64,000 bases of DNA from sequence record OM953433, one strand, 5' to 3'. Made by a program: the position numbers and the translations under genes. The DNA is from Shigella phage Henu11. The notes under the pieces are model-generated. The model was given only the letters and a program-made list of their open reading frames with translations, did not search any database and was not told where the DNA came from. This document shows positions 3,936 through 20,354 of this stretch, piece by piece. Numbering within the stretch: the first letter of the stretch is position 1; the number at the start of each line of letters is the position of its first letter.

Positions 3936-6308
3936 ATGCGCATGGTAAATGACCACGCAACGGTAATTAAAAGCTCAAGTACACTGGAAACCTCTCAGGC
4001 TCAGATTAAGATGACACCTGAAATGTTCAGTCTTCTAAGCTCAGGTGTTTACACATATAAAGAACGTGCTGTAATTCGTGAATTGTCATGTAACGCAGTA
4101 GATGCTCACATTGATTCTGGTAACGTTGATAAACCTTTCTTGGTTCACTTACCAACTCGTTTCGAGCCATTCTTTGAAGTTCGTGACTTTGGTACAGGAC
4201 TGACTCATGATAAAGTTATGAAACTTTACATGACCTATGGAGAATCTACAAAGAACGATTCAAACGACTACATTGGTGCTATGGGTATCGGTTCAAAGTC
4301 CCCATTTGCAATTGCTCAGTCATTCACTGTATCAAGCTATGTTGATGGTGTAGTTAACAAATACTCAGTTTACCTTGAGAATGGTATCCCTCAAGTAACT
4401 AAGTTGACTACTAACCCAACTACAGAGCCAAATGGTTTAGCTGTTCGAGTAGCGGTATCCGATAACCGTATCAACAAGTTTCATGAAGAAGCGAGCAATG
4501 TATACTCGTACTTTAAAGTTAAGCCAGAGTGTAATGTTGAGTACTATGACATTCTTGAAGCAATGACTTCCATTTCTCGTGAAGATGGTGTCTATGATGC
4601 AATGAAGTACAAAGAGAACTGGCGCTCAAATAGTAACAGCGTCCATTTCAATGTAATCATGGGTAACATTGCTTATCCGGTTGAAATGGGTGAGTTGCTT
4701 GGCTCAGAGTTTACAAACATTCTGCCTCAGTTCTTCCGTAGTGCTGTAGACCTTGTTAACATCTACATGCCAATTGGTTCAGTGGCTATTGCTGCATCTC
4801 GTGAAGCATTGCAGATGAATGAGACCACTAAGACCAAGATTGTTGAAGCTGTGAAGAAAATCACTAAGACAATCGTAGAAGATGTGGTAAAAGAGATTGC
4901 TAACAAGCCAACTCTGATTGATGCTGCTCAAGCCTATGATACCATGAGGAAGGAGGCTCGTGAAATCTTTATTCACGTCCAAGATTCTCTGGAATGGCAA
5001 GGCCAGAACTTGAAAAAGCTTGAACAAAAACTGTTAGGTATCCGTCGTGGTCAGTTAACTGAAGCAGATGGTTCTCCGTCATTCTTGAAAGATGATGCAG
5101 GTAACTTGAGGCTTGACAAAGATGGTAATCCAGTTCCTAATATTGGTAATCTGTATGAACCTGTAGCATACTACAAGTACAGCAGTCTGGAGAACCGTAT
5201 TCGAGCAACTTCAGCAACTTATTCACAAGATGCAGCAATGTTTAGTATCTTTGGTGCAATGAGTAAAGACAAGTTGAGCAACTATTTGTTCCTTATTAAT
5301 GACCGTCGAAACAAGAACGGGTCTGAGAAGACAACTGGTAAAAACCAGATTATCCGTGGAGCTTGCCGTGACCGTGAACAGGAAGACTCTAACTTCCGTC
5401 GCTACAATGGTATTGCTTTCTTGTTCAGCAGTCAGCAGCAATTTGATGAGTTTGTAGCTTTGCATATGCTTGACAAGAGTCTGTTAAGTGTGCATACAAT
5501 GTCATCTAAAGAGCACCACTATGAAAAACGTACTATTGTACGTGGTGTTGTAAAACTGTATAAAGCATTTATATGTCCAAATACTTACATGATTCGTTAT
5601 ACAGAGGTTAAAGAGAACTTTGATGAGATTGAAGAACCACAACTGTATATCAAAGCACAGAGTGATGAAGTGATTGGTGGAATCTTCTCATGTTCACCAG
5701 AACGTGCTGCAACGTTGATGACAGAGTTAACTGGACAGTCAGTTTATGTCTTCCGTAAAGCCAACTGGAAAAAGATTCCTGAAGACTGGACAGAAGTCAA
5801 TGAACAAGTGATGAAAGATTTCATTGATGCTACACATTGGATTGAGTATCATCGTTTCTTGACTCACCAATATATGACTAATAATCATGATATTACTGAT
5901 TGTAATGTGATTTCTCGAAACTTTATGTTTGCTGATAAGCGTAAGTCCAGAGGCCACATTTACAGTAAAGACTTTAAGAAGACTATTTTCTTAGAGGGGA
6001 ATGAAGAGGCTATAGAAGCAATGTTTGGACGCTTGGCATACACTGCTGCACCAGTTGCTTACAAAGATATTACCAGCACTCTTGATACCATTCGCAGGAA
6101 TATGAGAGGCTCTTGTAAGCCAAGAAAGGTTCTGGATAACGCTAAGAAGCGTCTTGAAAGTAAGTTCAAAGATTACTTTGAGAAACGCCGTAAAGAAAAC
6201 TTCTTGCTTTCTAATCTGGATTGGAATAAAGTATCACCCGTCGAAGTTGGTAAGTTTTTAGGTTTTGACACTAAGAGCATTCCAGAAGATACTGTATGCT
6301 GGGATTAA
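3936..6308 (+). CDS. rIIA: rIIA-like protein (N-terminal GHKL/HATPase-like domain)
   Basis: VIRELSCNAVDAH, VRDFGTGL, NDYIGAMGIGSKSPF motifs as in T4 rIIA; AAGGAG SD. Confidence 0.8.
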   Translation: MRMVNDHATVIKSSSTLETSQAQIKMTPEMFSLLSSGVYTYKERAVIRELSCNAVDAHIDSGNVDKPFLVHLPTRFEPFFEVRDFGTGLTHDKVMKLYMTYGESTKNDSNDYIGAMGIGSKSPFAIAQSFTVSSYVDGVVNKYSVYLENGIPQVTKLTTNPTTEPNGLAVRVAVSDNRINKFHEEASNVYSYFKVKPECNVEYYDILEAMTSISREDGVYDAMKYKENWRSNSNSVHFNVIMGNIAYPVEMGELLGSEFTNILPQFFRSAVDLVNIYMPIGSVAIAASREALQMNETTKTKIVEAVKKITKTIVEDVVKEIANKPTLIDAAQAYDTMRKEAREIFIHVQDSLEWQGQNLKKLEQKLLGIRRGQLTEADGSPSFLKDDAGNLRLDKDGNPVPNIGNLYEPVAYYKYSSLENRIRATSATYSQDAAMFSIFGAMSKDKLSNYLFLINDRRNKNGSEKTTGKNQIIRGACRDREQEDSNFRRYNGIAFLFSSQQQFDEFVALHMLDKSLLSVHTMSSKEHHYEKRTIVRGVVKLYKAFICPNTYMIRYTEVKENFDEIEEPQLYIKAQSDEVIGGIFSCSPERAATLMTELTGQSVYVFRKANWKKIPEDWTEVNEQVMKDFIDATHWIEYHRFLTHQYMTNNHDITDCNVISRNFMFADKRKSRGHIYSKDFKKTIFLEGNEEAIEAMFGRLAYTAAPVAYKDITSTLDTIRRNMRGSCKPRKVLDNAKKRLESKFKDYFEKRRKENFLLSNLDWNKVSPVEVGKFLGFDTKSIPEDTVCWD

Positions 6309-6316
6309 AAAATAGT

Positions 6317-6345
6317 TTGACAGGGGCTGAAAAGCCCCTTAGAAT
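6317..6345 (+). promoter_or_regulatory. sigma70-like promoter TTGACA-N17-TAGAAT with hairpin in spacer
   Basis: ttgaca 6317-6322; spacer contains ggggctgaaaagcccc; tagaat 6340-6345. Confidence 0.5.
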
Positions 6346-6388
6346 ACGAACCACTAAGTAATTTTAAACAACAAAGAGAGATATTGAA

Positions 6389-7510
6389 ATGACTACTAAG
6401 ACTAAAGCACAAATCGACGCAGAAATCTATGCACTGGTTAAAGAAGGTAAACTGACCAAAACTGCAATCGCTCTGAAGTATAACACTTCAACCCGTTCGG
6501 TAGGTCGTGCTGTAGAGCGCCATGAAGCAACGCTGCTGTCAGGGAAAACCAAAGCAAAACCTGCAAAGACTCTGAAAGATATTGCAAAGAGTGCTAAGAA
6601 AGTTAAAGCGACCAAGAAGGTATCTAAGCAGAAACCTGTTGCAAAAGCTGTTAAAGAAGCAGTCAAAGCAGAACCTGTAAATGCTCTGCATGAAGCAATG
6701 CAGAATAACAGCCAGATTGAATACATGATTACTGGTGATTCTGTTATCATGACTTTCGGTGCAGAGTCTGAGATTGTTGAGTCAACTCACCCTAACTACA
6801 CTGATATTGTAATGGCTGTTGTTTCAGGTGAGTACAAGAAAGCTTTTGAACTGATGAACATTCGCAAGTCTATTGAGAACTTCACTCAAGGTGCTGTAAC
6901 CATCAAAGGTGACAACCTGTATTACGGTGCTGTTCAGATGCGCTCAACTCTGGTAGACCGTATTCTGGATATGATGAAGAAAGGTGATAATGGCTTTGTT
7001 CGACTGATTGCATTCTTTGAAAAACTGATGGAAAACCCATCAAAAGACTCTGTAGAACAACTTTGGGGCTTCGTATCACACCTCGATGTTGAAATTGATG
7101 AAGAAGGTTATATCATCGGTTGGAAGAAAGTCACAACTCGTGGTGGTAAACTGTTTGACTCTCGTACCTGCAAAGTTCCAAATGATTTGGGTAACATTGT
7201 AGAGATGCCACGTTGGATGGTTGATAATAACCGCCATGTAACCTGCTCTCAGGGTCTGCACGTTGGTGCTTGGGATTATGTAACTAGCTTCTCTGGTGAC
7301 ACTATCCTGAAAGTTCGTGTTCATCCTCGTGATGTTGTTTCAGTACCAACTGACTACAACGACATGAAAATGCGAGCTTCCCGTTATGAAGTTGCAGCGA
7401 TTGTAAATAGTCGCCGTGAAATCATCAAAGAGTGGGATGGTTCAGAAGCACTTCACGTAGTTGTAGGTACTGCTGGTGAACTGATTTCTCAGCGTAAACG
7501 TGAAGTTTAA
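6389..7510 (+). CDS. rIIB: rIIB-like protein
   Basis: LVDRILD, ENPS, KVRVHPRDVVSVPTDYNDMKMR motifs resemble T4 rIIB; adjacent to rIIA. Confidence 0.8.
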   Translation: MTTKTKAQIDAEIYALVKEGKLTKTAIALKYNTSTRSVGRAVERHEATLLSGKTKAKPAKTLKDIAKSAKKVKATKKVSKQKPVAKAVKEAVKAEPVNALHEAMQNNSQIEYMITGDSVIMTFGAESEIVESTHPNYTDIVMAVVSGEYKKAFELMNIRKSIENFTQGAVTIKGDNLYYGAVQMRSTLVDRILDMMKKGDNGFVRLIAFFEKLMENPSKDSVEQLWGFVSHLDVEIDEEGYIIGWKKVTTRGGKLFDSRTCKVPNDLGNIVEMPRWMVDNNRHVTCSQGLHVGAWDYVTSFSGDTILKVRVHPRDVVSVPTDYNDMKMRASRYEVAAIVNSRREIIKEWDGSEALHVVVGTAGELISQRKREV

Positions 7511-10879: not shown

Positions 10880-11674
10880 ATGGGTATCGTAAAAATTATT
10901 AAAGGTGATATCTTTAAAGATTTTGATGGTAAGAAGTTTGATATCATTGGTCACGGTTGTAACTGCATGAACTTGATGCCAGCAGGTATCGCAGCAACAA
11001 TTGCTAAACGCTACCCAAAAGCTTATGAAACTGACGCTGAAGTTTATGCTACAGTAGGTGGTGAAAATCATAACCCTAAGCATCTAATGCTTGGTAACAT
11101 CTCTGTAGCACGTTTTAAGCAGGGTCGAATTGCTAACCTTTACACTCAGGTTATCACTGGCAAAGATGCACGATACAACGCCTTAGAAGCAGCTTTACAG
11201 CGTCTTAACAACTACTGTAAAGTTAATCAACTTAAGAAAGTTGGGCTTCCGATGATTGGTGCAGGGATTGGTGGTCTTGATAGCATGGCTGTACTGTCCA
11301 TTATCAACCAGACTATGAAGGATGTTGACGTTTATATGTATGTCTATGAAGATAAGATGTACAGTCAGTTGACTAGTCCTGTTACTGGTTGGGAGAACTT
11401 CAGTGAGCCTCAATACTTTGATGGTGTTGCTGTGGTAGGCAAGGATAAAGTTACCCTCAAGGTGAAGCGTAATGGCAAGGTACACACCAGTTACCCTCCG
11501 GTTGAGAAGTACAATCGAAGTAACGCTCAAGTTACCCACCCGTTACAAGGCCACCACCACAGAGCGGTAACGTTTGGCGATGATGCAAGTGTATATATCA
11601 ATGCGACTACAGAAGAGTTTGCAGAAGATTATATCACACATGAAAACGTAAACTATGTTGAAGCACGTAACTAA
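10880..11674 (+). CDS. macro-domain-like protein with C-terminal extension
   Basis: ORF track with start moved to ATG 10880; GDIF...DIIGHGCNCMNLMPAGIAATIAKRYP and VGLPMIGAGIGGLD resemble macro-domain signature blocks. Confidence 0.5.
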   Translation: MGIVKIIKGDIFKDFDGKKFDIIGHGCNCMNLMPAGIAATIAKRYPKAYETDAEVYATVGGENHNPKHLMLGNISVARFKQGRIANLYTQVITGKDARYNALEAALQRLNNYCKVNQLKKVGLPMIGAGIGGLDSMAVLSIINQTMKDVDVYMYVYEDKMYSQLTSPVTGWENFSEPQYFDGVAVVGKDKVTLKVKRNGKVHTSYPPVEKYNRSNAQVTHPLQGHHHRAVTFGDDASVYINATTEEFAEDYITHENVNYVEARN

Positions 11675-11744
11675 TAAGTTACCCAGATAAACATAGACAA
11701 GCCCTCCAAAGTTTGAGTTTAAAATCTCAGGTAAGGAGGGCTTT

Positions 11745-11930
11745 TTCATTTTAAATTTGTGCAGGTATAGTTGCATAGAACTCTGGACAGATTTCTTTAG
11801 CTGAACTCCAAAGGGAAAATTCATTTCAAATTTGTGCAGGTTTAGACTCCAAAGGGGTTTTTCATTTTCAATCTGTGCAGATGCAGTTGGACTCCAAAGG
11901 GAAAATTCATTTTCAGTTTGTGCAGGTAGG
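11745..11930. repeat. four tandem copies of a ~50-65 bp unit ending in TTCATTTT-N-TTGTGCAGGT
   Basis: copies end near 11766, 11831, 11881, 11928. Confidence 0.6.
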
Positions 11931-12099
11931 TAGCTGTAGGAAACCAGCCCCACCATCCCCTCTTACTCCCCTTCCTCCCAAAAGTCAAGATAAAAATTTG
12001 TAGAGAACTCAAAAATAATTCTTGACTAGATTCCTGTTTTAGTGTATCCGCATACGTGCGTTCTATTCACGAAACATCAAAAATATTTTTAAAAATTTT

Positions 12100-12127
12100 G
12101 TTGACTTCATAAATCCAGTCTTATAGT
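12100..12127 (+). promoter_or_regulatory. putative promoter (TTGAC-like -35, TATAGT -10)
   Basis: gttgac 12100-12105, tatagt 12122-12127. Confidence 0.4.
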
Positions 12128-12178
12128 ATTTGCATCAACGGGAAACATCCCAACAATCCTAAACTGGAGAATCTGAAA

Positions 12179-12385
12179 ATGTTATATCAACGTGAGTTAA
12201 TGATTGTTGACAACAACAAAACAAATAAACGTCGTTTCTATATGCTAATTTGTGATGTTTGGCAACGTATCTCAGAAAAAGATTTTGATAAATATGTTAA
12301 TACGTCAATCAGGTCAGATTGTTACTTGACAAATCATACAAGACAGTTTACAAGACATACAGCAATTTATTATTACAACGTTTAA
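12179..12385 (+). CDS. hypothetical small early protein
   Basis: ORF track; conserved leader. Confidence 0.5.
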   Translation: MLYQRELMIVDNNKTNKRRFYMLICDVWQRISEKDFDKYVNTSIRSDCYLTNHTRQFTRHTAIYYYNV

Positions 12386-12397
12386 GAAGGCTTGACA

Positions 12398-12559
12398 ATG
12401 ATTAAAGAAAACGATGTAATACAATACAAAGATTTAGACGGATACCTAAAAATTGGTAAAGTCTTCTATCTCTATAAATCTGCTATGGGTAATAATTGTG
12501 TAGCCCTTACAAATGGCGATAAAATAACCATGAAAGATTTTATAAAAATTATTGCATAA
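12398..12559 (+). CDS. hypothetical small protein (53 aa)
   Basis: Unlisted ORF; AAGAAGG SD. Confidence 0.3.
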   Translation: MIKENDVIQYKDLDGYLKIGKVFYLYKSAMGNNCVALTNGDKITMKDFIKIIA

Positions 12560-12564
12560 AGTAC

Positions 12565-12593
12565 TTTACATGGGGTTTAAAAGCTAGTATCTT
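12565..12593 (+). promoter_or_regulatory. hairpin-embedded promoter TTTACA-N17-TATCTT
   Basis: lies within inverted repeat ggggttt...aagcccc. Confidence 0.4.
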
Positions 12594-12643
12594 AAGCCCC
12601 AGATAAAGAGCTTTACCAACAATCCTAAACTGGAGAATCTGAA

Positions 12644-13024
12644 ATGAAATATCGTGCGCCTAAATTTATCAACAAAGAAAACTTTCGTAGTATCTTAGAG
12701 GAAACTATGAAAGAAAACTTCAAAGGAAAAATAATTGTTGTTCACGCTTACAATTTTAAGTATGATGTTAATGGTAACCGTATCAACCACTACAAAGCTA
12801 CTATGCTTGACGGTACATTATCCGGTGAAAAAGCTATCATAAATGCTATTGCAGGACGTGGTAAAACTGTGATACGATGCGAAAAAAGACGCTATCAAGG
12901 CGGAAAATATGGATATGAAGATGCAATGTATCATCTTGATAAAATGGGGTATGATGTAGAGAAAGCTGGAGTATCCCAAACTATTGGTAGTGACGGCTAC
13001 GTTACAGTTTTCAAAATTAATTAA
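12644..13024 (+). CDS. hypothetical small early protein
   Basis: ORF track; conserved leader. Confidence 0.55.
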   Translation: MKYRAPKFINKENFRSILEETMKENFKGKIIVVHAYNFKYDVNGNRINHYKATMLDGTLSGEKAIINAIAGRGKTVIRCEKRRYQGGKYGYEDAMYHLDKMGYDVEKAGVSQTIGSDGYVTVFKIN

Positions 13025-13033
13025 ATAAAGTCC

Positions 13034-13062
13034 TTTACATGGGGTTTATAGTTAGATAAGAT
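13034..13062 (+). promoter_or_regulatory. hairpin-embedded promoter TTTACA-N17-TAAGAT
   Basis: same cassette architecture. Confidence 0.4.
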
Positions 13063-13114
13063 AAGCCCCAGATAAAGAGCTTTACCAACAATCAACCTAA
13101 ACTGGAGTATCAAA

Positions 13115-13372
13115 ATGGCTACTATCAAAAACATCATTGTATCTGCAAAATCTCGTGATGACGCTCGCGCAACTGCTAAAAAACTAAATGGTAAAGTGGT
13201 TGACAACGGAAAAGAATCTGCTGTAAGATGGGGCGTGAAATGTGATAAGGAAATTACTTTAAAACGTAGTTCCTATGACCTTTTCAAAGGTGTAAAAGCA
13301 ATCGGTAGAACTAACGTCTACACGAAGAAAGGTTATAAAATGCACTTATCATTAACTGACAATTTAATCTGA
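13115..13372 (+). CDS. hypothetical small early protein
   Basis: ORF track; conserved leader. Confidence 0.55.
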   Translation: MATIKNIIVSAKSRDDARATAKKLNGKVVDNGKESAVRWGVKCDKEITLKRSSYDLFKGVKAIGRTNVYTKKGYKMHLSLTDNLI

Positions 13373-13380
13373 TAAAGTGC

Positions 13381-13409
13381 TTTACATGGGGTTTATAAGT
13401 TGCTAGTAT
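13381..13409 (+). promoter_or_regulatory. hairpin-embedded promoter TTTACA-N17-TAGTAT
   Basis: same cassette architecture. Confidence 0.4.
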
Positions 13410-13464
13410 AAGCCCCAGATAAAGAGCTTTACTAACCAATAGTCCTAAACTGGAGAATCTTAAT

Positions 13465-13977
13465 ATGTCATACGTTGAAGCTACCTTTGAAGTTCAAAAA
13501 GAAAAATTCACTATCATCTATGAAGCTGTTAATATTTGTGAAGCATCCCATTGTGTGGAAAATTGGAAGTTTACCGATGAGCACAAAGGCGGGGTTACAA
13601 TCAAACTTAAAAATCCAGAGCGTAACGGGTACAAATATGCAATTCCACAGCATTACAGCCTTTCTCAATTGATGAGTGATTATGCTAAACAAGGCCGCGA
13701 AAATCCATCTATAGAGGCTTACAAGAGCTTACAAGATGAATTACAAAGAGATTTAGAGGCTAACAGCTATGTACTATTTGCAAAGGTAGAAGATAAAGAA
13801 GGTAATACGGTATTAAATAGCTTTTCACTTGCTTATGGTTTCGATTGGTGTTATCTTGACGGGGAAGATTTAGATTCACGATTAGAAGAGGAAGTGTCGA
13901 ACTCCGATGGAGAATCTGAAGTAATGGAACGTTTGGAAGACTTGAAAGATTCTGTTATGAATATCTTTAATATCTAA
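13465..13977 (+). CDS. hypothetical early protein
   Basis: ORF track; conserved leader. Confidence 0.55.
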   Translation: MSYVEATFEVQKEKFTIIYEAVNICEASHCVENWKFTDEHKGGVTIKLKNPERNGYKYAIPQHYSLSQLMSDYAKQGRENPSIEAYKSLQDELQRDLEANSYVLFAKVEDKEGNTVLNSFSLAYGFDWCYLDGEDLDSRLEEEVSNSDGESEVMERLEDLKDSVMNIFNI

Positions 13978-13982
13978 AGTGC

Positions 13983-14011
13983 TTTACATGGGGCTATCAA
14001 GTTGATAAGAT
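13983..14011 (+). promoter_or_regulatory. hairpin-embedded promoter TTTACA-N17-TAAGAT
   Basis: same cassette architecture. Confidence 0.4.
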
Positions 14012-14060
14012 AGCCCCAGATAAAGAGCTTTACCAACAATCCTAAACTGGAGAATCTAAA

Positions 14061-14357
14061 ATGTTTATTGCCGCAAACGTTAGAACTAAATTAAGCCAGC
14101 TATTAAGCAATATTCAATTCATTGAATCCATGCGCCGTACCTCTGAAGCCGTAGAATGGTATCACGGAAAGATTGACAAAAGGGAAGTTGTGATTTGTGT
14201 ATGGAGCTTTTGTAAAGAATACAGAAAGCCGTTGCTTCAGATAGATATCTATGATAATGCTAATAAATCAGCTATTAAATCCACAAAAGATATGGTAGAT
14301 TCTTATGAAATTAGTCACACTGGTAAACTATTCCACAAAGGTAAAAACAAATGCTAA
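14061..14357 (+). CDS. hypothetical small early protein
   Basis: ORF track; conserved leader. Confidence 0.55.
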   Translation: MFIAANVRTKLSQLLSNIQFIESMRRTSEAVEWYHGKIDKREVVICVWSFCKEYRKPLLQIDIYDNANKSAIKSTKDMVDSYEISHTGKLFHKGKNKC

Positions 14358-14698
14358 TCACATACACTGCAATTTTTATCTCTATTGTGGCGCTCTATAA
14401 AGCCTTGCAAGCGCACAGTATAGCTAATAAGGCACTTACAAGGGATTTAAAAATAAATCTTGTACGGGGCTTTTTAGAGCGTTTGAGCTTAGAACAATTG
14501 AAACGTTTAGAGATGAGCTTTCGATTCAAAGCAGAGACATACCGGATTGATAACATCCTAGATGGTGATTTTAAATTAATCAGTGATTATGACATACTTC
14601 TTGAGTCAATTCAAGATATAAACCTGAAAGATTATTATATTGTAATAGCACAAGAAATTAATAAAAAAGAGCTTGCAATGCAGAATCAAAACAAGTAA
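14351..14698 (+). CDS. hypothetical protein with N-terminal TM segment
   Basis: ORF track; start overlaps upstream stop. Confidence 0.5.
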   Translation: MLITYTAIFISIVALYKALQAHSIANKALTRDLKINLVRGFLERLSLEQLKRLEMSFRFKAETYRIDNILDGDFKLISDYDILLESIQDINLKDYYIVIAQEINKKELAMQNQNK

Positions 14699-14756
14699 AG
14701 TATTCATCAACGGGGCAAGATAGAAGCCCCAACAATCCTAAACTGGAGAATCTAAA

Positions 14757-15029
14757 ATGTATACTACTAATGACGGTCGCACTTTGAACGTAACTTTAAA
14801 ACACTATGTAGACGGTGTATTAAACTTTGAAGAGTTAAGAGCAGAACAGCAACTATTAGATTGGCAAGTAGCAGGTTTACAAAAAACCGCTACAGGATAT
14901 GGAAAGAAAATTCCTACATCTTGGAAAGTTCGATACCTTGGAAAGTTACGCAGAATTTATCAAGATGTTTATAGTAATAGCGGTGTAAGTTACATTATTG
15001 TTAGTGGTAAAAAGTTGTATTTAGTCTAA
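14757..15029 (+). CDS. hypothetical small early protein
   Basis: ORF track; conserved leader. Confidence 0.55.
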   Translation: MYTTNDGRTLNVTLKHYVDGVLNFEELRAEQQLLDWQVAGLQKTATGYGKKIPTSWKVRYLGKLRRIYQDVYSNSGVSYIIVSGKKLYLV

Positions 15030-15037
15030 TAAATTGC

Positions 15038-15066
15038 TTTACATGGGGTTATCAAGTTGATAAGAT
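15038..15066 (+). promoter_or_regulatory. hairpin-embedded promoter TTTACA-N17-TAAGAT
   Basis: same cassette architecture. Confidence 0.4.
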
Positions 15067-15118
15067 AGCCCCAGATAAAGAGATTTACCAACAATCAACC
15101 TAAACTGGAGTATCAAAA

Positions 15119-15526
15119 ATGACTAATGTTAATCACAAAGAAGTTGCAATTTTGAAAGCACGTTTGACCATTAACCGCATCAACATTGTAACATCAGCAG
15201 CGCCAGACGAAACACTGCATAATATCATCGGCAAAATTCAGGGCGTAGTAGTAGACACAAAACAGCTTAAAGAGTCCTTGCAAGATGTAGCAGCAGGGGC
15301 TATAATTGACGGTGCTCAATATGAGATGAAGGAAATGCTGTCAAAGTCAAAAGTAATGAATAAAGAACTTGACTTGAAAATGTTTAGATTTGCTGTTAAA
15401 GTGTGGCTATGTGTTGATTTTGATGCAAACTTTGCAATTGCTGATTTCTTTGCAACATGGTTACAGCGTAACTTACCGGTCGAAGTTTTCCGTGAAATCT
15501 GCGATGCAATTTATTCAGAGATTTGA
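15119..15526 (+). CDS. hypothetical early protein
   Basis: ORF track; conserved leader. Confidence 0.55.
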   Translation: MTNVNHKEVAILKARLTINRINIVTSAAPDETLHNIIGKIQGVVVDTKQLKESLQDVAAGAIIDGAQYEMKEMLSKSKVMNKELDLKMFRFAVKVWLCVDFDANFAIADFFATWLQRNLPVEVFREICDAIYSEI

Positions 15527-15611
15527 TTGACATTGCAAAAGCATAGTAGTAGAGTACTCATCAACGGGGCAAGTTAGAAGCCCCAACAATCCTAAACTGG
15601 AGAATCTGAAA

Positions 15612-15860
15612 ATGTTTAATATGTTGAATATCCCTGACACTTGCCGACTCTTAACACAATTTGATAACCTTGGTAAGCCGTTTTTATATCATATGCCAGA
15701 TAACACTGCAAAAACTTACAGTTACATTGTAAACCGTTTTACGGCTTATGGTTCAAAGTATGGCTATAATGTCAAGACTCAAAAGGTGACTTTGTTCACA
15801 AGTATTGAAGAGTTACCAACTGTTGCCGTTAAACTAATCTTTACAAAGAAAACTAAATAA
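15612..15860 (+). CDS. hypothetical small early protein
   Basis: ORF track; conserved leader. Confidence 0.55.
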   Translation: MFNMLNIPDTCRLLTQFDNLGKPFLYHMPDNTAKTYSYIVNRFTAYGSKYGYNVKTQKVTLFTSIEELPTVAVKLIFTKKTK

Positions 15861-15865
15861 AGTCC

Positions 15866-15894
15866 TTTACATGGGGTTTAAAAGCTAGTATATT
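15866..15894 (+). promoter_or_regulatory. hairpin-embedded promoter TTTACA-N17-TATATT
   Basis: same cassette architecture. Confidence 0.4.
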
Positions 15895-15944
15895 AAGCCC
15901 CAGATAAAGAGCTTTACCAACAATCCTAAACTGGAGAATCTAAA

Positions 15945-16502
15945 ATGAAATGCTTCCACGGTACTACACAAGAAAACTTCGTAAATCTTATTAATGGCGG
16001 TGATAAACCATCAGGAGCTTGGAATTGCTCTGATATGGATGGATGTTTTTATGTCTACCCTGTTAGCAAGTTCTATGATGTAGAAAATCTGGATGACGAA
16101 CAAATCATAGATGAAGGTATTAGAAACGCGCTTGATAGCGCAAGCATTACAGCAGCCTATCAAATGAAGTCACAAAAACTTGTCATCTTGGAACTAGATA
16201 TTCCAGAAGATGATTTACAAGATGACTGGAGTTGTGAGAACATGAGCGACGTCGCAAGCTTTACAGAATATTTCGATAAAGAATGGATTAAAAAGGTTTA
16301 CACAACTGAATTTAATGCTATGTATGCGCCTTTCTTTGTCCCTAACCTGAATAATAGGAACTTGGGTTATATACCGGATGAGTTACACAACATTGCGGCA
16401 ATAGTTCAACGTAGTGATGAGATGAATAATGTTTATATTGATATCTTCGAGACTATGCAATGTAACGTAGCAGAAACGGCTATAAACGACTTAACAGCAT
16501 AA
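15945..16502 (+). CDS. hypothetical early protein
   Basis: ORF track; conserved leader. Confidence 0.55.
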   Translation: MKCFHGTTQENFVNLINGGDKPSGAWNCSDMDGCFYVYPVSKFYDVENLDDEQIIDEGIRNALDSASITAAYQMKSQKLVILELDIPEDDLQDDWSCENMSDVASFTEYFDKEWIKKVYTTEFNAMYAPFFVPNLNNRNLGYIPDELHNIAAIVQRSDEMNNVYIDIFETMQCNVAETAINDLTA

Positions 16503-16565
16503 ACGATAGAATCATACCAGTTCACTAGAAAAGCCCCGCACAGGGGCTTACAAGAGGCTTAAAAG

Positions 16566-16796
16566 ATGCTTACAACAATCTATCTTATCCTATCTATCTG
16601 CAATGGTTCACAATGTGACTTTAAAGGTCTGGAAGAGTTTACAGGTAGCGAAAATAATGCTATTGTTGCCTGTCAGATAGCAAGGCAAGACTACCCAACA
16701 TCGGATGATATCCAATGTTACTATAAATCAGAAGATGATGAAGGGATTTACTTTGATAGTGTGAATGGTGAATATGAGATTCTTATAGAAAAGTAG
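16566..16796 (+). CDS. hypothetical small protein
   Basis: ORF track 76 aa. Confidence 0.45.
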   Translation: MLTTIYLILSICNGSQCDFKGLEEFTGSENNAIVACQIARQDYPTSDDIQCYYKSEDDEGIYFDSVNGEYEILIEK

Positions 16797-16886
16797 TTGA
16801 CACTAAAAACGCAAACAAGTAAAGTATTCATCAACGGGAAGGAAACTTCCCCACTAAACAAAATTCCTAAACTGGAGAATCTGAAA

Positions 16887-17228
16887 ATGGCCTATGTAAC
16901 AATTATCACCGATAAAGAAAATTCGTCATGGTCTACCCAAGTTAACGACAAAATGACACCTATGCAGTGTCTCAAATACTTTGAGCAGTGGAACAGGGGA
17001 GAAGATGTAAGCCCCTTTCAAGTGATGCAGATTGTACATGTTGACAATGAAGGGAATAAAACTACCCTTAACACTGAGTACTATACTACACGTTTCGAGA
17101 CTCGCAAATCAGCTATGCAGGGTTTAAGAGAAAAGGGATATAGTCACATTGCCGCGCTCATTTGGTCTGATTTGCTTAAAAAACAGTCATTAACCTATGT
17201 TAAGCCAGAAAAAATCTTTATAAGCTAA
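16887..17228 (+). CDS. hypothetical early protein
   Basis: ORF track 16797..17228; start moved to the ATG directly after the conserved leader. Confidence 0.5.
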   Translation: MAYVTIITDKENSSWSTQVNDKMTPMQCLKYFEQWNRGEDVSPFQVMQIVHVDNEGNKTTLNTEYYTTRFETRKSAMQGLREKGYSHIAALIWSDLLKKQSLTYVKPEKIFIS

Positions 17229-17355
17229 TCAACAACTTATAAAAATCTTTTGAAAAACTATTGACAATGCCCCTTGACAAGTGTAACTTTGTTCGAGGGG
17301 GTTTATCTAAAAGGATTCACTTAAAAGATTCTTTATAGATAAGCGTAAAAAGTAC

Positions 17356-17384
17356 TTGCAAAGGTTTAATCATATCTATATAGT
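17356..17384 (+). promoter_or_regulatory. promoter TTGCAA-N17-TATAGT
   Basis: ttgcaa 17356-17361, tatagt 17379-17384. Confidence 0.45.
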
Positions 17385-17423
17385 ATCTTCAAAAGGCAAC
17401 TTCCTAAACTGGAGAATCACAAA

Positions 17424-17564
17424 ATGTTAGATATCATTAAAAACCCTATCCTTTGCGGTATGATTGTTTCTGTTGTGTTGCCATTAGCAATGCTCATCAT
17501 TGGTGAAATCTCAGATAAACTTTTTGATAAAAAACTACTTGCAATACAGAATCAAAACAAGTAA
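17424..17564 (+). CDS. small hydrophobic protein (46 aa)
   Basis: Unlisted ORF behind a leader variant; C-terminus LAIQNQNK mirrors the end of 14351..14698. Confidence 0.35.
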   Translation: MLDIIKNPILCGMIVSVVLPLAMLIIGEISDKLFDKKLLAIQNQNK

Positions 17565-17628
17565 AGTATTTATCAACGGGGAGGGAGACTTCCCCACTAA
17601 ACAAAATTCCTAAACTGGAGAATCTGAA

Positions 17629-18156
17629 ATGAACAAGTTCCAAGCAATTAATCATATCCGTTCCAATGCAGTAATGAGCAAGCCAGTAAAAGACACCTTC
17701 GAATTCCGCTGTAATGATAAGTTGTTTGCAGTCATTACAAAAGGGGAAGATAAAAAGTATTATGTACATCGCCAAAACGTTAAGTTAGTAACAGCAGACA
17801 ACTTTATGAAAGCTGTTGCAACAATCCTACCGGATTTTATGGAACTGGTAGCAGAACTTTGTGAACACTGCATCAAGTCATCAAAGGCAGAATTAAACCG
17901 CTTTAAAATGGCTTATGAGCGTTCTATCAAGTCCCATAACATGTATATCATGCCATTGGCTTTTGGTACTCAGGCAATGGGAACAGGTTGTCATCCTTTC
18001 CACCTTTACGATGTAGAAAGCATTTACCTTAGTGAGTCAAAAGATATTGATTTTAGTTTACAGTTAGGACAAGCATTAAATGATATGATTAAATTACACG
18101 AAAAATCCGTAAAAGATATGCAAAAAGAGCTTGACGAAATCATCGTAAATCTATAA
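17629..18156 (+). CDS. hypothetical early protein
   Basis: ORF track; conserved leader. Confidence 0.55.
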   Translation: MNKFQAINHIRSNAVMSKPVKDTFEFRCNDKLFAVITKGEDKKYYVHRQNVKLVTADNFMKAVATILPDFMELVAELCEHCIKSSKAELNRFKMAYERSIKSHNMYIMPLAFGTQAMGTGCHPFHLYDVESIYLSESKDIDFSLQLGQALNDMIKLHEKSVKDMQKELDEIIVNL

Positions 18157-18216
18157 AGTACTTATCAACGGGGAGGGAATGACCTTCCCCAACAATCCTA
18201 AACTGGAGACTAGAAA

Positions 18217-18480
18217 ATGAATAATCAAGAAATCACTATCCTGTTACAAATCGGTACTGACAAAGAAGATATCCAACTTTGCAAACGTATTGAAAGTGAT
18301 TGGTTCAACGGTGAAATCATCGCAGAATCTTATGAAGTAGTCGGATTCATGAATGGTGAAGTTGTAAGCCATTTCGGTTTAACTAAATCTGAAGCCGTTG
18401 CAAAGTATGACGTTTTATCTTGTGAGATTCTTACAAAATACAATGAAAAAAGACTTGCAACTTATGCAGCAATGAATTAA
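18217..18480 (+). CDS. hypothetical small early protein
   Basis: ORF track; conserved leader. Confidence 0.55.
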   Translation: MNNQEITILLQIGTDKEDIQLCKRIESDWFNGEIIAESYEVVGFMNGEVVSHFGLTKSEAVAKYDVLSCEILTKYNEKRLATYAAMN

Positions 18481-18546
18481 TATTACTTTCAACGGGGAGG
18501 GAGACTTCCCCACTAAAACAAAATTCCTAAACTGGAGAATCTGAAA

Positions 18547-18798
18547 ATGGCTACTATCCGCGCAACTGTTAACAATTTTGGCTTCCATGTATTAGATGTT
18601 AAATTTGATATGGTTGGAACTGGTGATGCTTTCGGTATGATTGAAATGTGTCTGAAGGCAACTATTCAGGACTACAATCCATCGGAAACATTCTGGAAAG
18701 AAACTAAACAGGAAGTTTTAAAGGATGGTGTATCTTCTTACTATTGGGGTGATTCTCTTATCACGCTTTACTACCAAAAATTTGGTGTGATTAACTAA
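18547..18798 (+). CDS. hypothetical small early protein
   Basis: ORF track; conserved leader. Confidence 0.55.
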   Translation: MATIRATVNNFGFHVLDVKFDMVGTGDAFGMIEMCLKATIQDYNPSETFWKETKQEVLKDGVSSYYWGDSLITLYYQKFGVIN

Positions 18799-18839
18799 CA
18801 AGTCGCCGCAACGGGGCAAATAGCCCCAGATACCTATAC

Positions 18840-18862
18840 AGCCCCTTCAATGGGGCTTTTTT
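18840..18862 (+). terminator. rho-independent terminator closing the plus-strand early block
   Basis: agcccc-ttcaat-ggggct hairpin plus T5. Confidence 0.65.
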
Positions 18863-19292
18863 ACGTCTTCCTAGAATCTTACCAGACATTTAGAACAATA
18901 ACTCTATAGCTTACTCTATATCCTCTTATCAAATCAACTTAAATATAAGCCCATAACCCGAAAGGGAAGGGCAATCCCTAAAACGCTCTATAACGCTCTA
19001 TACGGGCTTATCATCTCATCTTAAGCAATCATATTAACCTACTCTTAAAAGCCCTTTATAGAGCTTTCTAGAGCCTTAAAAGAATCTTATAAGGGTATAA
19101 GCTTTATTATCTCGTTAGTATCTTGTGAATGGTTAAACAGGGGCTTGAAAGTTACTTAATAATGTGTTATGGGGAACTAAAAAGAGCTTAAAAGTAACGT
19201 AAAAGATGCTTAAAAGTAACGTAAAAGTTAGCCCCCTTTACATTCTCTTAACAAAATCTTAACAAATGCAACATAGTTATGCTTATTAGAGA

Positions 19293-19749
19293 CTTGTTAG
19301 CCCCTTGTTAAATCCTTGTTAGAGGTATGTTAAGAGCTTGTTAGACTCTTTGAAGTCCCTGTATAAGCCCCTAGAAAGCCCTATAAAGAGCTATACAGGC
19401 AATTGGGCTATAGTTACTATGGAGAACCTTAGAAATGGCTGTATAGAGCTATACAGGGCTTTTAAGAGGGCTTTTAAGAGAATCACTGAGAGAGGGAAGG
19501 GAACTATAGACCAAGAGATAGTGACCATGTTAATAGCTTGTTAAAAAGGTTTAGAACTTGTTAGCATCTTGTTAATTATCTTAACAAAATAACTCTTAAG
19601 ATTTAACTATTTAGCAACTTATAAGCAACTTGTTAGACTCTTGTTAGTAATGTTACAGACTTGTTAAGCTCTTGTTAGTTCTGTTAAGAGACTGTTAAGG
19701 ACTTTGAAGAGATGTTAAGAGCTTGAGAGAGTTGTTAAGAGATTGTTAA
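19293..19749. repeat. iteron-like array: at least 19 copies of (C/T)TTGTTA(A/G) phased at about 10-11 bp
   Basis: clusters 19293-19344, 19526-19575, 19629-19749. Confidence 0.7.
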
Positions 19750-20354
19750 TGATATTTTAAGATTTTGCAAAGGGGATGTTACAGGGCTGTTAAGGGCTAC
19801 CAAGCAGATATACACCCTAGACAGATATTTTTCAGTTCCTTCAAAGAACCTAAAAAGTGACCTACCTAGTCTATTTTATAAAAATTTTATAGAACTGAAT
19901 AACTATCTATACACTATCTAGTATAAAACAGGTAATAACAGGCTTATAAGATACCTTGTTAGTACCGTGTTAGACCTTGTAGGATAAGCCTTTACAGGGA
20001 ATACCTGTTTAGTGTTATATAACAGTCTATATAGAGGCTTAGTTGACCCTAGTGAACCATCTGTAGAGAGTACTCTCTGTGACATAGAGATTAAGATGGA
20101 TATAGGGGCTTCTAAGGGGCTATGAAGAGACTAGGAAGGTGATTATATAGGTTTGGAAGAGGGCTTGTTAGAGAGCTTTGTAGAGGGCTATTTAGAAGGG
20201 GCTATATAGTTTCACTAGATAGAGACTAAGAGGCTATATAGATACTATATAATACTATATAGAGAGTATGCTTAGATAGGTTGTTTAGAAGGTCTAGATA
20301 TTTTATCACATATCATGGTGACCCAAGATGAACGGAGTGAATCCAAATTTTATA

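Follow-up and report, generated by a model that had tools for sequence, protein, structure and literature searches.

Probable PeSL-type stop-to-start cassettes in an array of small genes of a Felix O1-like phage

[quoted passage not shown] The array is probably a set of PeSL-type (promoter-early stem-loop) regulatory cassettes that are mobile by recombination, as their architecture and behaviour agree with the anatomy and behaviour described for PeSLs of T4-like phages (PMC2839356, PMC4122927). No paper applying the PeSL concept to Felix O1-like phages was found in the literature, and in the Felix O1 genome paper the repeats are listed but not interpreted. Gene gain, loss and movement at such cassettes are known for T4-like phages and are newly seen in this phage group.

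The ORFs, all on the + strand and encoding 46–185 aa, occupy positions 12179–18798 and match in number the array of about 17 described in an earlier note on this DNA. That note had placed the same leader of ~30 nt, together with a hairpin, before each of 14 consecutive ORFs. Fourteen leaders were found, but the series is interrupted by ORF2, ORF7 and ORF12, which have none, and a G/C-clamped hairpin accompanies 13 of the 14, the leader of ORF14 being without one. The 32-mer quoted as the leader occurs exactly only twice (five matches when up to 3 mismatches are allowed), while a 12-mer core is exact in all 14 copies. The description of a single cassette missed its exact stop-to-start extent and two distinct classes, each with a predicted sigma-70-type promoter: class B (seven copies and one without a hairpin) and class A (six copies), in which the hairpin is a long three-tier structure that overlaps the promoter.

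Table 1. Features of the array and its boundaries, with predicted promoter elements
Feature	Position	Strand	aa	PHROG	−35	−10	Hairpin	Remarks
Upstream boundary	11724–11927	+						Four tandem ~40-bp units: terminator-like hairpin then TTTTTCATTTTnAATTTGTGCAGGT
Class B cassette before ORF1	12101–12178	+			TTGACT 12101–12106	TAGTAT 12124–12129	GGGAAACATCCC 12140–12151	Leader 12150–12178
ORF1	12179–12385	+	68	phrog_5293				
ORF2	12398–12559	+	53					No cassette; 12-nt gap from ORF1; missing in KPS64, Mordin
Class A cassette before ORF3	12557–12643	+			TTTACA 12565–12570	TATCTT 12588–12593	12557–12615	Hairpin from ORF2 stop TAA; MFE −21.6, z −4.6; leader 12616–12643
ORF3	12644–13024	+	126	phrog_4495				
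Class A cassette before ORF4	13026–13114	+			13034–13039	TAAGAT 13057–13062	13026–13084	Leader variant AATCAACCTAAACTGGAGTATC
ORF4	13115–13372	+	85	phrog_5089				
Class A cassette before ORF5	13373–13464	+			13381–13386	TAGTAT 13404–13409	13373–13431	
ORF5	13465–13977	+	170	phrog_4190				Acidic C-terminus; homologue of Felix O1 ORF16
Class A cassette before ORF6	13975–14060	+			13983–13988	TAAGAT 14006–14011	13975–14032	Hairpin from ORF5 stop codon; MFE −27.4, z −6.9; TG extension
ORF6	14061–14357	+	98	phrog_4401				
ORF7	14351–14698	+	115					No cassette; 7-nt overlap with ORF6
Class B cassette before ORF8	14673–14756	+			TTGCAA 14673–14678	TAAAGT 14696–14701	14712–14730	Leader to 14756; ORF7 stop codon inside −10
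ORF8	14757–15029	+	90	phrog_3436				
Class A cassette before ORF9	15030–15118	+			15038–15043	TAAGAT 15061–15066	15030–15087	Double change in outer stem (TAAATT..GATTTA)
ORF9	15119–15526	+	135	phrog_4327				Homologue of Felix O1 ORF20
Class B cassette before ORF10	15527–15611	+			TTGACA 15527–15532	TAGAGT 15550–15555	15566–15584	
ORF10	15612–15860	+	82	phrog_9030				Missing in Moogle, ESh22, KMM4; junction in leader
Class A cassette before ORF11	15858–15944	+			15866–15871	TATATT 15889–15894	15858–15916	
ORF11	15945–16502	+	185	phrog_3303				H5/Y36/E83 invariant
Hairpin 3' of ORF11	16531–16549	+					AAGCCCCGCACAGGGGCTT	No real T-run
ORF12	16566–16796	+	76	phrog_4640				No cassette or leader; own SD AAGAGG
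Class B cassette before ORF13	16797–16886	+			TTGACA 16797–16802	TAAAGT 16820–16825	16836–16851	Leader subtype ACTAAACAAAATTCCTAAACTGGAG
ORF13	16887–17228	+	113	phrog_4318				Homologue of Felix O1 ORF21
Hairpin 3' of ORF13	17270–17300	+					CCCCTTGACAAG..CGAGGGG	Conserved; overlaps two TTGACA boxes
Promoter and leader before ORF14	17356–17423	+			TTGCAA 17356–17361	TATAGT 17379–17384		No hairpin
ORF14	17424–17564	+	46					Hydrophobic; putative membrane protein in KPS64 annotation
Class B cassette before ORF15	17539–17628	+			TTGCAA 17539–17544	TAAAGT 17562–17567	17578–17595	
ORF15	17629–18156	+	175	phrog_4725				Homologue of Felix O1 ORF22
Class B cassette before ORF16	18131–18216	+			TTGACG 18131–18136	TAAAGT 18154–18159	18170–18190	
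ORF16	18217–18480	+	87	phrog_7022				Missing in Felix O1, ESh22, KMM4, EcSzw-2
Class B cassette before ORF17	18455–18546	+			TTGCAA 18455–18460	TAATAT 18478–18483	18494–18511	
ORF17	18547–18798	+	83	phrog_4559				Homologue of Felix O1 ORF23
Array end	18813–18863	+					CAACGGGGCAAATAGCCCCAGATA 18813–18827	Half-cassette hairpin
Intrinsic terminator at array end	18840–18863	+					AGCCCCTTCAATGGGGCT	Followed by TTTTTT; counterpart of Felix O1 terminator t23

The core 12-mer (CCTAAACTGGAG) is present in 14 exact copies between 12158 and 18537, on the + strand only, and is absent from the rest of the 64 kb, against a chance expectation of 0.39. Mean pairwise identity between copies was 1.00 in the motif, 0.83 in the next 10 nt and 0.61 in the previous 10 nt, compared with 0.24–0.30 (about 0.27) in the flanking coding DNA, so that the leaders are more conserved than the coding sequence around them. 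Among 11 genomes, whose proteins differ by 13–35 %, the 12-mer is invariant in ~150 copies while its flanks drift. The dominant flank is genome-specific (AATCT in this window, ATTCA in EcSzw-2), and the flanks show concerted evolution.

Promoter-like pairs of the form TTKMMN-17-TAnnnT were present in 14 of 14 cassettes and, cross-checked by an independent scan, numbered 18 in the 7-kb array versus 21 in the other 57 kb of the + strand. The AT content upstream of the −35 was 0.77 compared with a background of 0.644. On these matches to consensus the promoters are predicted to be of sigma-70 type, and every cassette would supply a host sigma-70 promoter, its −35 and −10 exactly 17 bp apart and preceded by AT-rich DNA, as well as an RNA hairpin and a common 5' leader ending in the SD GGAG and ATG. 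In class B, TTGACA/TTGCAA-17-TAAAGT is followed by 10 nt and then the hairpin, with an A-tract at the UP-element position; all 47 distinct copies, drawn from 13 genomes, conserve the spacer and the fixed 10 nt. ORF7 takes its last codons (..KKELAMQNQNK) in frame from the class B promoter that follows it, with its UP-like A-tract, −35 and spacer, and the C-terminus of ORF14 (..KKLLAIQNQNK) is likewise encoded by the next promoter. The class B hairpin lies ~3–4 nt from the predicted transcript start, and class B transcripts would have a 5' end capped by a stem-loop at that distance. A 5'-terminal stem-loop in this arrangement protects E. coli mRNAs from 5'-end-dependent decay.

In class A, TTTACA-17-TAnnnT lies within a three-tier hairpin of 21 bp that has 1x1 and 2x2 internal loops and begins at the stop codon of the upstream gene or adjoining it (MFE −21.6 to −27.4 kcal/mol, z −4.6 to −6.9). 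The structure was supported by the proportion of paired cells (93.8 %, versus 32–60 % with the partner slid), by conserved G.U pairs and by compensatory double changes at four informative pairs, with whole-cassette conversion perhaps behind some of the covariation. In each of the 40 distinct copies TAnnnT lies exactly 17 bp after TTTACA and the sense RNA is stabler than the antisense; since common descent or gene conversion links the copies, counts such as these do not represent independent events. The spacing also held for all 22 copies found on Ounavirinae-like contigs in IMG/VR. As a control, the same flanking arms gave 68 single-hit matches; three of these had TAnnnT at that distance, and one of the three was itself an Ounavirinae copy, leaving chance matches in 2 of 67 (~3 %). 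Within the loop, whose other columns are 0.53–0.93 conserved, the −10 T and A are unpaired and never vary. The −10 hexamers match TATAAT at only 4–5 of 6 positions, and the GC-rich discriminator (GCCCC) may weaken class A promoters. New transcripts would begin directly 3' of the inner stem, while on read-through RNA from upstream the hairpin could act as an intercistronic barrier, attenuator or processing site. The hairpin has no T-run and is therefore no canonical terminator, in contrast to the terminator role claimed for T4-type PeSL stem-loops.

Gene-sized indels between the window and nine relatives have their junctions mainly in the leader or cassette. Leaders make up 7.4 % of the array but contained 32 of 42 junction ends, a figure to be read with the caveats that BLAST alignments run on into the repeat beside an indel and that the location in repeats could partly reflect survivorship, with only those indels that keep expression units intact persisting. 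The 42 ends resolve to eight distinct leaders, three other cassette sites and three other sites. ORF3 and ORF4 are missing in Moogle and Felix O1, and the ORF13 cassette is a hot spot at which relatives have extra genes (x9, x10, x17 and x43). Gene family x10 has a different slot in each of three genomes, the cassette before gene 13 is of class B in some genomes and class A in others, array gene order is rearranged in Erwinia phage SunLIRen, and Mordin contains a 1.5-cassette scar. The junctions, translocation, class swaps and reordered genes support the proposal of the earlier note that the array is shuffled in modules by a repeated regulatory cassette. With 14 directly oriented copies of the same 30–90 nt, the cassettes would provide portable homology for recombination, which could delete, insert, swap or relocate 'cassette + ORF' units; an ORF landing between two cassettes would therefore be expressed at once.

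Direct tandem units with similar spacing and homologous upstream regions could also stem from a single ancestral gene that was duplicated in tandem with its upstream region, the ORFs being paralogs beyond recognition and the regulatory DNA conserved. This is very improbable given protein sizes that span 46 to 185 aa and the movement of units independently of one another, as shown by the x10 translocation and class swapping. The 17 proteins have no mutual blastp similarity and belong to 17 different PHROG families, among which profile–profile comparison (hhalign) detected no remote homology (best probability 5.4 % among 136 pairs), in line with the earlier remark that the proteins look unrelated; apart from the promoter-encoded tail that ORF7 and ORF14 share, they have no stretch in common. 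A separate proposal, raised in part by the earlier note as a regulator or endoribonuclease of GGAG leaders, is that the leader (AACAATCCTAAACTGGAG...) is the operator of a trans-acting post-transcriptional factor that would turn all the early genes off or on as one set. Candidates would be a phage RegB-like endoribonuclease acting on GGAG, the sequence that RegB of T4 targets, or else a RegA-like translational repressor or a host factor. The invariance of the 12-mer exceeds the needs of an SD alone, and every copy is predicted to form a CCU...GGA mini-hairpin pairing with the SD, altered versions of which are kept in Felix O1 (CCUU..AGG) and an Erwinia phage (CCUU..AAGG). However, this mini-hairpin has only 3–4 bp, and frequent gene conversion could hold the core identical with no reader needed. 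The 58 window proteins yielded no RegA/RegB-like, RNase or RNA-binding domain, with ~24 kb of the genome lying outside the window. Of the 80 genes outside the array, 18 also have GGAG as their SD, the likely capsid gene carries CTGGAGAAT, and Erwinia relatives have AGGAA in place of GGAG, all of which makes such an operator unlikely.

For class A, a doubtful but possible alternative is that the sites act mainly at the RNA level, as intercistronic RNase III-type processing sites or 3' stabilisers on polycistronic class B transcripts, comparable to those of the T7 early region, with the −35/−10 resemblance a by-product of stem sequence. A 21-bp hairpin falls in the size range of RNase III substrates, and the three tiers and internal loops, compensatory changes, G.U pairs, strand asymmetry, onset at or next to the stop codon and lack of a T-run all fit this reading. 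Since TTTACA overlaps and also builds the middle stem, structural constraint could account for its conservation. Covariation is never seen in that stem, however, which suggests sequence-specific reading, and loop sequence is not read by RNase III, yet the −10 T and A are invariant there. The exact 17-bp spacing in 62 of 62 copies, versus 3 % in chance controls, and a TG extension in about half of copies also argue for a promoter. The two roles are compatible, as one stretch of DNA can serve as a promoter and also, when transcribed from upstream, give rise to a processing hairpin, and the PeSL-type interpretation is preferred for both classes.

By analogy with Felix O1 and from the promoter type, the array genes may be expressed early; semi-quantitative RT-PCR in Felix O1 detected ORFs 16, 20, 21 and 22 at 5 min after infection and array genes 14, 17, 19 and 23 at 25 min, not 5 min (PMC3185647). 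For the host-takeover or anti-defence roles suggested in the earlier note, the one hint is a weak ADP-ribosyltransferase-fold signal of ORF11. The end of the array in the earlier note, 18862, falls inside the T-run (18858–18863) of the strong intrinsic terminator, and the tandem units at the upstream boundary are the counterpart of Felix O1 terminator t13.

By its architecture, the array of 17 small ORFs is a series of cassettes of the promoter-early stem-loop (PeSL) type of T4-like phages, combining a predicted promoter, hairpin and leader, in a phage group where these repeats have been seen but left uninterpreted. The segment 12000–19000 was most similar to Citrobacter phage BSwM KMM2 (Mooglevirus), with 95 % identity over its full length, and was matched by 247 records of Felix O1-, Moogle- and SUSP-type phages at 60–99 % identity. 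Judged by these matches, the phage is a Mooglevirus-like member of the Ounavirinae. The array follows same-strand genes for PRPP synthetase, NAPRTase, an rIIA-like ATPase and a macro-domain protein, and precedes approximately 1.5 kb without ORFs and an opposite-strand block with lysozyme.

The ORFs (ORF1–ORF17) encode proteins of 46–185 aa belonging to 17 different PHROG families, all of unknown function. No Pfam match was obtained for the 17 ORFs at E≤0.01, and no meaningful one for ORF5, ORF11 and ORF15 at E≤10. An origin as ancient tandem paralogues is highly improbable and was rejected, since no blastp similarity was detected among the array proteins and the best probability in an all-against-all profile–profile comparison (hhalign) was 5.4 % among 136 family pairs, in agreement with the earlier note, to which the proteins had looked unrelated. 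The only sequence common to array proteins, ..LA(M/I)QNQNK at the C-termini of ORF7 and ORF14, stems from in-frame reading of the following cassette's promoter.

Features of the array and its surroundings (window coordinates, unless another record is named)
Feature	Position	Description
Array ORFs	12179–18798	17 ORFs, + strand
Leader cores	12158–18537	14 copies, all + strand
Class A cassettes		before ORF3, 4, 5, 6, 9 and 11; 58–59-nt three-tier hairpin, then leader
Class A stems		outer TAAAGT/GCTTTA; middle CTTTA/TAAAG; inner GGGGnnnnn/nnnnnCCCC
Class A discriminator	12594–12600 and equivalents	AGCCCC
Class B cassettes		before ORF1, 8, 10, 13, 15, 16 and 17; the ORF14 cassette is laid out alike but lacks the hairpin
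Class B layout		TTGACA/TTGCAA, 17 bp, TAAAGT (or TAGAGT, TAGTAT, TAATAT), 10 nt (AYTYATCAAC), hairpin, leader
Promoter-encoding ORF ends	14658–14701; 17524–17567; 18116–18159; 18440–18483	
Intrinsic terminator	18840–18863	array end, + strand
Tandem units of ~40 bp	11724–11927	four units, directly 5′ of the array
C-rich, G-poor tract	11945–11985	
TGTTAR cluster	19248–19973	25 copies; 11-bp steps at 19295, 19306, 19317, 19328 and 19339
Likely major capsid gene	41992–43095	
Late gene	50933	
L075 element	331–380 (minus)	on IMGVR_UViG_3300010945_000252, a 5.3-kb viral contig
KMM2 homologues of ORF11 and ORF13	5441–5845 and ~6300–6900	in the compared KMM2 locus (L002)

A leader precedes 14 of the 17 ORFs, the exceptions being ORF2, ORF7 (which overlaps ORF6) and ORF12, and 13 of these leaders have an upstream hairpin. 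The earlier note had described fourteen consecutive ORFs each preceded by leader and hairpin; the number of leaders stands, but one lacks the hairpin and the run is interrupted. All leaders contain an invariant core, CCTAAACTGGAG, which occurs nowhere else in the 64 kb (0.39 copies expected by chance, 14 observed with no mismatches), and the SD GGAG lies 8–10 nt 5′ of the ATG in 14/14 cases. The exact 32-mer proposed earlier as the leader was found twice, or five times at ≤3 mismatches. Ungapped ATG-anchored comparison of orthologous or paralogous leaders was uninformative because of 1–2 nt indels, and counts of variants anchored on the motif were used instead. When the copies were aligned on the motif, their mean pairwise identity was 1.00 within it, 0.83 over the 10 nt that follow and 0.61 over the 10 nt that precede it, as against 0.24–0.30 in the coding flanks, so that the leader is indeed more conserved than the coding DNA around it.

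The core was identical in approximately 150 copies from 11 genomes. The dominant flank differed by genome, with GGAG followed by AATCT in 10/14 leaders of the window and by ATTCA in 8/12 of EcSzw-2, and with own leader forms in Felix O1 (CCTTAAACTAGGAG) and the Erwinia phage (CCTTAnAnAGGAA). Such genome-specific flanks are as expected from frequent exchange between copies and indicate concerted evolution. The likely major capsid gene and another late gene have the RBS contexts CTGGAGAAT and ATGGAGAAT, which match the SD-proximal stretch of the leaders in the array; that stretch is thus probably a generic strong translation-initiation context in Henu11.

[quoted passage not shown] Two types were distinguished. 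The class A hairpin begins at or beside the upstream stop codon and comprises 21 bp in total, with an MFE of −21.6 to −27.4 kcal/mol (z −4.6 to −6.9). In the alignment of class A copies 93.8 % of cells were paired, compared with 32–60 % when the 3′ partner was slid by 1–3 columns; double changes were found at pairs 5-55 (GC 31, UA 7), 18-42 (GC 36, UA 4), 24-36 and 15-45, and the covariation score was reached by no shuffle. Unpaired cells at pairs 23-37 and 24-36 came mostly from the 58-nt class, in which the pairing register is shifted by one. The sense RNA was more stable than the antisense in 40/40 copies (−22.5 vs −17.8 kcal/mol), although the copies are linked by common descent or gene conversion, so that counts such as this are not independent events. 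The asymmetry results from conserved G.U pairs (6-54 and 20-40), whose counterparts in the antisense RNA would be C.A mismatches. It points to a structure that is read in the transcript; a DNA cruciform and an antisense RNA are disfavoured on the same grounds. An Rfam scan of 11500–19500 (E≤1) returned only a spurious miRNA match and no matching family.

The predicted class A promoter (TTTACA, 17 bp, TAnnnT) lies inside this hairpin, with the −35 overlapping the middle stem, the −10 in the loop and 3′ arm, and the inner GGGG..CCCC stem covering the spacer and −10. The middle stem showed no variation, which fits an additional sequence-specific constraint from the −35. An alignment of 40 distinct copies, representing four genera, showed an invariant T and A in the −10 (columns 32 and 33) though both are unpaired, the remaining loop columns being 0.53–0.93 conserved, and TAnnnT followed TTTACA at exactly 17 bp in 40/40. 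In a scan of IMG/VR in which only two arms were fixed (CTTTACA..GATAAAGAG), the −10 was present at +17 in 22/22 distinct copies from multi-hit Ounavirinae-like contigs (mean MFE −21.6) and in 3/68 distinct single-hit matches (group mean MFE −9.9). One of these three (L024, an 87.5-kb contig with a leader downstream) is an Ounavirinae copy, leaving chance matches at 2/67. Across genomes, the −10 spacing was therefore kept in 62/62 copies against approximately 3 % of chance controls. The 22 nt upstream of the −35 had an AT content of 0.77, compared with 0.644 (sd 0.09) for 22-mers drawn at random from the array, and promoter-like pairs with a 17-bp spacer numbered 18 in the 7-kb array and 21 on the + strand of the other 57 kb, a strong enrichment in the array. 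The transcript is predicted to start 6–8 nt after the −10, at CCCC-A-GATAAAG.

The discriminator is GC-rich in class A and AT-rich (AYTYATC) in class B. From general knowledge of E. coli promoters, the GC-rich form raises the speculative idea that class A might respond to ppGpp/DksA and hence to host growth state. A promoter-in-hairpin design as in class A was also seen in the unrelated L075 element, which surfaced solely because it happened to fit the scan pattern and carries TTTACA-17-TATAAT with a perfect 13-bp hairpin (AAGGAACCTTGAT..ATCAAGGTTCCTT) spanning spacer and −10.

In class B the hairpin follows the promoter and is a G/C-clamped stem of 4–8 bp. The 17-bp spacer and the distance to the hairpin were fixed in 47/47 distinct copies from 13 genomes, and the stem sequence was variable (GGGGC..GCCCC, GGGGAGGGA..TTCCCC, GGGAAC..TCCC). 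Transcripts are predicted to begin 6–8 nt after the −10, at CAACGGGG; with a start at about 7 nt, the hairpin would begin 3–4 nt from the 5′ end. The position expected for a proximal UP element, within the last codons of the upstream ORF, is taken by an A-tract, AAAAAAGAG. This UP-like tract, the −35, the spacer and the −10 together encode the last 10–15 codons of upstream ORFs that are otherwise unrelated and so end in similar C-terminal tails (..KKELAMQNQNK, ..KKLLAIQNQNK), and the upstream stop TAA often forms the first three bases of the class B −10 TAAAGT or of the class A outer stem. A T-run was found after none of the cassette hairpins of either class, and the only canonical intrinsic terminator on the + strand of 12101–18863 is that at the array end; on this basis, intrinsic termination was rejected as a role of the cassette hairpins.

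Class A repeats were present in 268 phage records, at approximately 4.7 per genome and always in unannotated intergenic DNA. The array was compared with 12 loci (Mordin, KMM2, Felix O1, SunLIRen, ESh20, KPS64, Moogle, Silverhawkium, phiSUSP1, ESh22, KMM4 and EcSzw-2). BLAST blocks broke at leaders, with flanking blocks overlapping by approximately 31 nt, which is the leader itself. In 21 gene-sized events against nine genomes, 32 of 42 indel junction ends lay in a leader, a sequence that makes up 7.4 % of the array; distinct junction sites comprised eight leaders, three other cassette positions and three sites elsewhere. The gene-content map of 13 genomes consists of a conserved backbone with optional units of cassette plus ORF. 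One or two extra genes were present at the ORF13 leader in ESh20, KPS64, Mordin and phiSUSP1, Moogle lacked ORF3+4, ORF10 and ORF14, and Silverhawkium lacked ORF1+2 and carried an extra gene at the ORF17 leader. Homologous genes were reordered in the Erwinia phage (5, 8, 11, 6, 12, 15, 10). The cassette of gene 13 was class B in the window, Moogle and Felix O1 and class A in KPS64, Mordin and phiSUSP1. A 65-aa family absent from the window array (x10, 54–68 % identity) occupied three different slots in ESh20, ESh22 and EcSzw-2, in each of which a class A cassette abutted its stop codon. Mordin retained a scar of 1.5 cassettes in which CTTTACCAA is joined to CTTTACATGGGG, an out-of-register junction of the 3′ arm of one cassette to the 5′ arm of the next. 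The modular shuffling by a mobile regulatory cassette suggested in the earlier note is supported by the junctions within leaders, the translocation of x10 and the class swaps, and is sharpened to a cassette of PeSL type. The KMM2 homologues of ORF11 and ORF13 look split or shortened relative to the window and other relatives, probably through frameshifts or sequencing errors in the record.

PeSLs have been described in the T4-like phages RB49/phi1, T4/PST and KVP40/nt-1 (Arbiol et al. 2010, PMC2839356; Comeau et al. 2014, PMC4122927). They are intergenic composite motifs of ~60–100 bp with a sigma-70-like promoter, an N17 spacer, AT-rich upstream sequence, a stem-loop of a G-run and a C-run lying mostly between −35 and −10 or over the −10, and a terminal SD and ATG; they cluster in hyperplastic regions by ORFans, mark indel/replacement junctions and differ in sequence between T4 subgroups (PMC2839356, PMC4122927). 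Promoter activity, terminator activity and mini-circles have been shown experimentally for the RB49/phi1 PeSLs (PMC2839356, PMC4122927). The window cassettes share the predicted 17-bp-spaced boxes, AT-rich upstream DNA, the stem-loop at the promoter and the SD with ATG, and the T4/PST promoter consensus, TTTACW-N17-TAYWAT, is very close to class A. All copies cluster at 12.1–18.6 kb by ORFs without Pfam match whose content varies among 13 genomes, and the leader junctions, translocated x10 and Mordin scar correspond to the junction feature. Several properties differ. In class B, the −10 is followed after 10 nt by the stem-loop, which would thus sit at the 5′ end of the transcript, a placement not described for PeSLs; the 21-bp three-tier hairpin of class A has no T-run, which makes a terminator role doubtful; a 12-nt leader core is invariant in all copies; and parts of the class B promoter double as terminal codons of the preceding ORF. 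PeSLs are known from T4-like myoviruses and the window phage falls outside that range, in the Ounavirinae, and no sequence homology is claimed. Because the PeSLs of T4 subgroups already differ in sequence, the class is one of architecture rather than homology, and on that definition the window cassettes would be a PeSL-type element in a new lineage, not a homologue.

The Felix O1 genome paper gives a 57-bp and a 39-bp repeat as direct repeats only and names other candidate promoters (PMC3185647). The longer repeat is class A and the shorter one the class B promoter; the leader core is annotated as a 14-nt repeat_region in the Mordin GenBank record. These are the same elements, reported without a promoter, hairpin or recombination reading. 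By RT-PCR, Felix O1 ORFs 16, 20, 21 and 22 were detected at 5 min and ORFs 14, 17, 19 and 23 at 25 min (PMC3185647); according to the Felix O1 and VpaE1 genome papers, transcription timing is not known in Felix O1-like phages (PMC3185647, PMC4690856). A search of the accessible literature yielded no paper tying PeSLs to Felix O1-like phages or Ounavirinae and no transcriptomic or TSS data for the Ounavirinae.

Direct observations comprise the architecture of the sequence, the covariation in the hairpin and its strand asymmetry, the positions of junctions, one translocation and concerted evolution. A composite explanation, in which PeSL-type stop-to-start cassettes combine promoter, hairpin and leader with a role in recombination, is considered probable. 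From established knowledge we infer that host RNA polymerase would start at each cassette, that class B hairpins would stabilise the mRNA 5′ end, and that class A hairpins would form barriers on read-through RNA, or sites for its processing or attenuation. The common leader would give uniform, efficient translation initiation, and the repeated cassettes would serve as substrates for homologous recombination. For class B, a comparison is offered by the ompA-type 5′ stem-loops that protect E. coli mRNAs from 5′-end-dependent RNase E attack. The class B hairpin, at ~3–4 nt from the predicted +1, lies within their protective distance, although its start site is a prediction and its stems have 4–8 bp. 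For class A, the comparison is with the T7 early region (genes 0.3–1.3), in which host RNA polymerase reads small host-takeover genes and RNase III sites lie between the cistrons, at conserved, irregular hairpins of about two helical turns that end up at mRNA 3′ ends. Class A, with 21 bp and the more stable sense strand, has the size of RNase III-site hairpins (~20 bp or more on the transcribed strand), which class B at 4–8 bp does not reach. T7 has three left-end promoters and no internal promoter per gene, whereas every cassette hairpin overlaps or follows a promoter-like site. That class A is exclusively an RNase III or stabiliser site with no promoter function is unlikely in view of the −10 kept invariant within the loop; a dual role as promoter and RNA site is possible.

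GGAG is the target motif of RegB in the translation initiation region, and the earlier note had raised a phage translational regulator or endoribonuclease acting on the GGAG-containing leader. Such a function of the leader, as operator of a RegB/RegA-like factor, appears improbable: no RegA/RegB-like or RNase domain was detected with Pfam in 58 proteins of the window (~24 kb of the genome lies outside it), and GGAG, rejected as an array-specific SD, is used by 18/80 other genes besides 14/14 leaders and is replaced by AGGAA in Erwinia relatives. A further reading, which we regard as doubtful, combines a dual-use ‘gene socket’ with an invariant AACAAUCCUAAACUGGAG leader as operator of a hypothetical phage or host factor. 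As DNA the socket would be a promoter and as read-through RNA a 21-bp hairpin that is cleaved or blocks exonucleases, each ORF thereby becoming an autonomous mRNA; in the leader, CCU...GGA would pair to the SD, and the factor would switch the whole early set together. If this were true, Felix O1-like phages would gain a defined early regulon and a shut-off mechanism.

Felix O1-like phages are widely used in Salmonella typing, biocontrol and therapy. Under the PeSL-type interpretation, reading the repeats as 14 host-type promoters, each with hairpin and common leader, would provide a testable map of early transcription units. It would extend the ‘plug-and-play’ gene shuffling of PeSLs from T4-like phages to an unrelated myovirus subfamily, and suggests that cassette shuffling is a general phage solution for trialling new small genes. 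Cassette boundaries predict where accessory genes could be removed or inserted without disturbing expression, and the variable slots, of which the one preceding ORF13 is an example, indicate which genes are the likeliest to act in host-specific takeover or anti-defence. With their predicted promoters, the cassettes may also serve as compact, portable expression parts for phage engineering.

Three further features flank the array. The ORF-free region between the array terminator and the opposite-strand block contains a cluster of TGTTAR copies, mostly CTTGTTAG or TTGTTAA and often exactly 11 bp apart, compared with approximately two per kb in the rest of the window; it looks like an iteron array, either a replication origin or a regulator-binding array. 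On the 5′ side, each of the tandem units consists of a terminator-like hairpin followed by TTTTTCATTTTnAATTTGTGCAGGT. The units are kept in Felix O1 (terminator t13) and the Erwinia phage, and the minus-strand ORF annotated across them in records of relatives may be spurious. Between these units and the array lies the C-rich tract, CCAGCCCCACCATCCCCTCTTACTCCCCTTCCTCCC, in a region of otherwise 35 % GC. It is shared with Felix O1 and, with weaker conservation, with the Erwinia phage, and could be rut-like in + strand RNA or G-quadruplex-prone on the minus strand.
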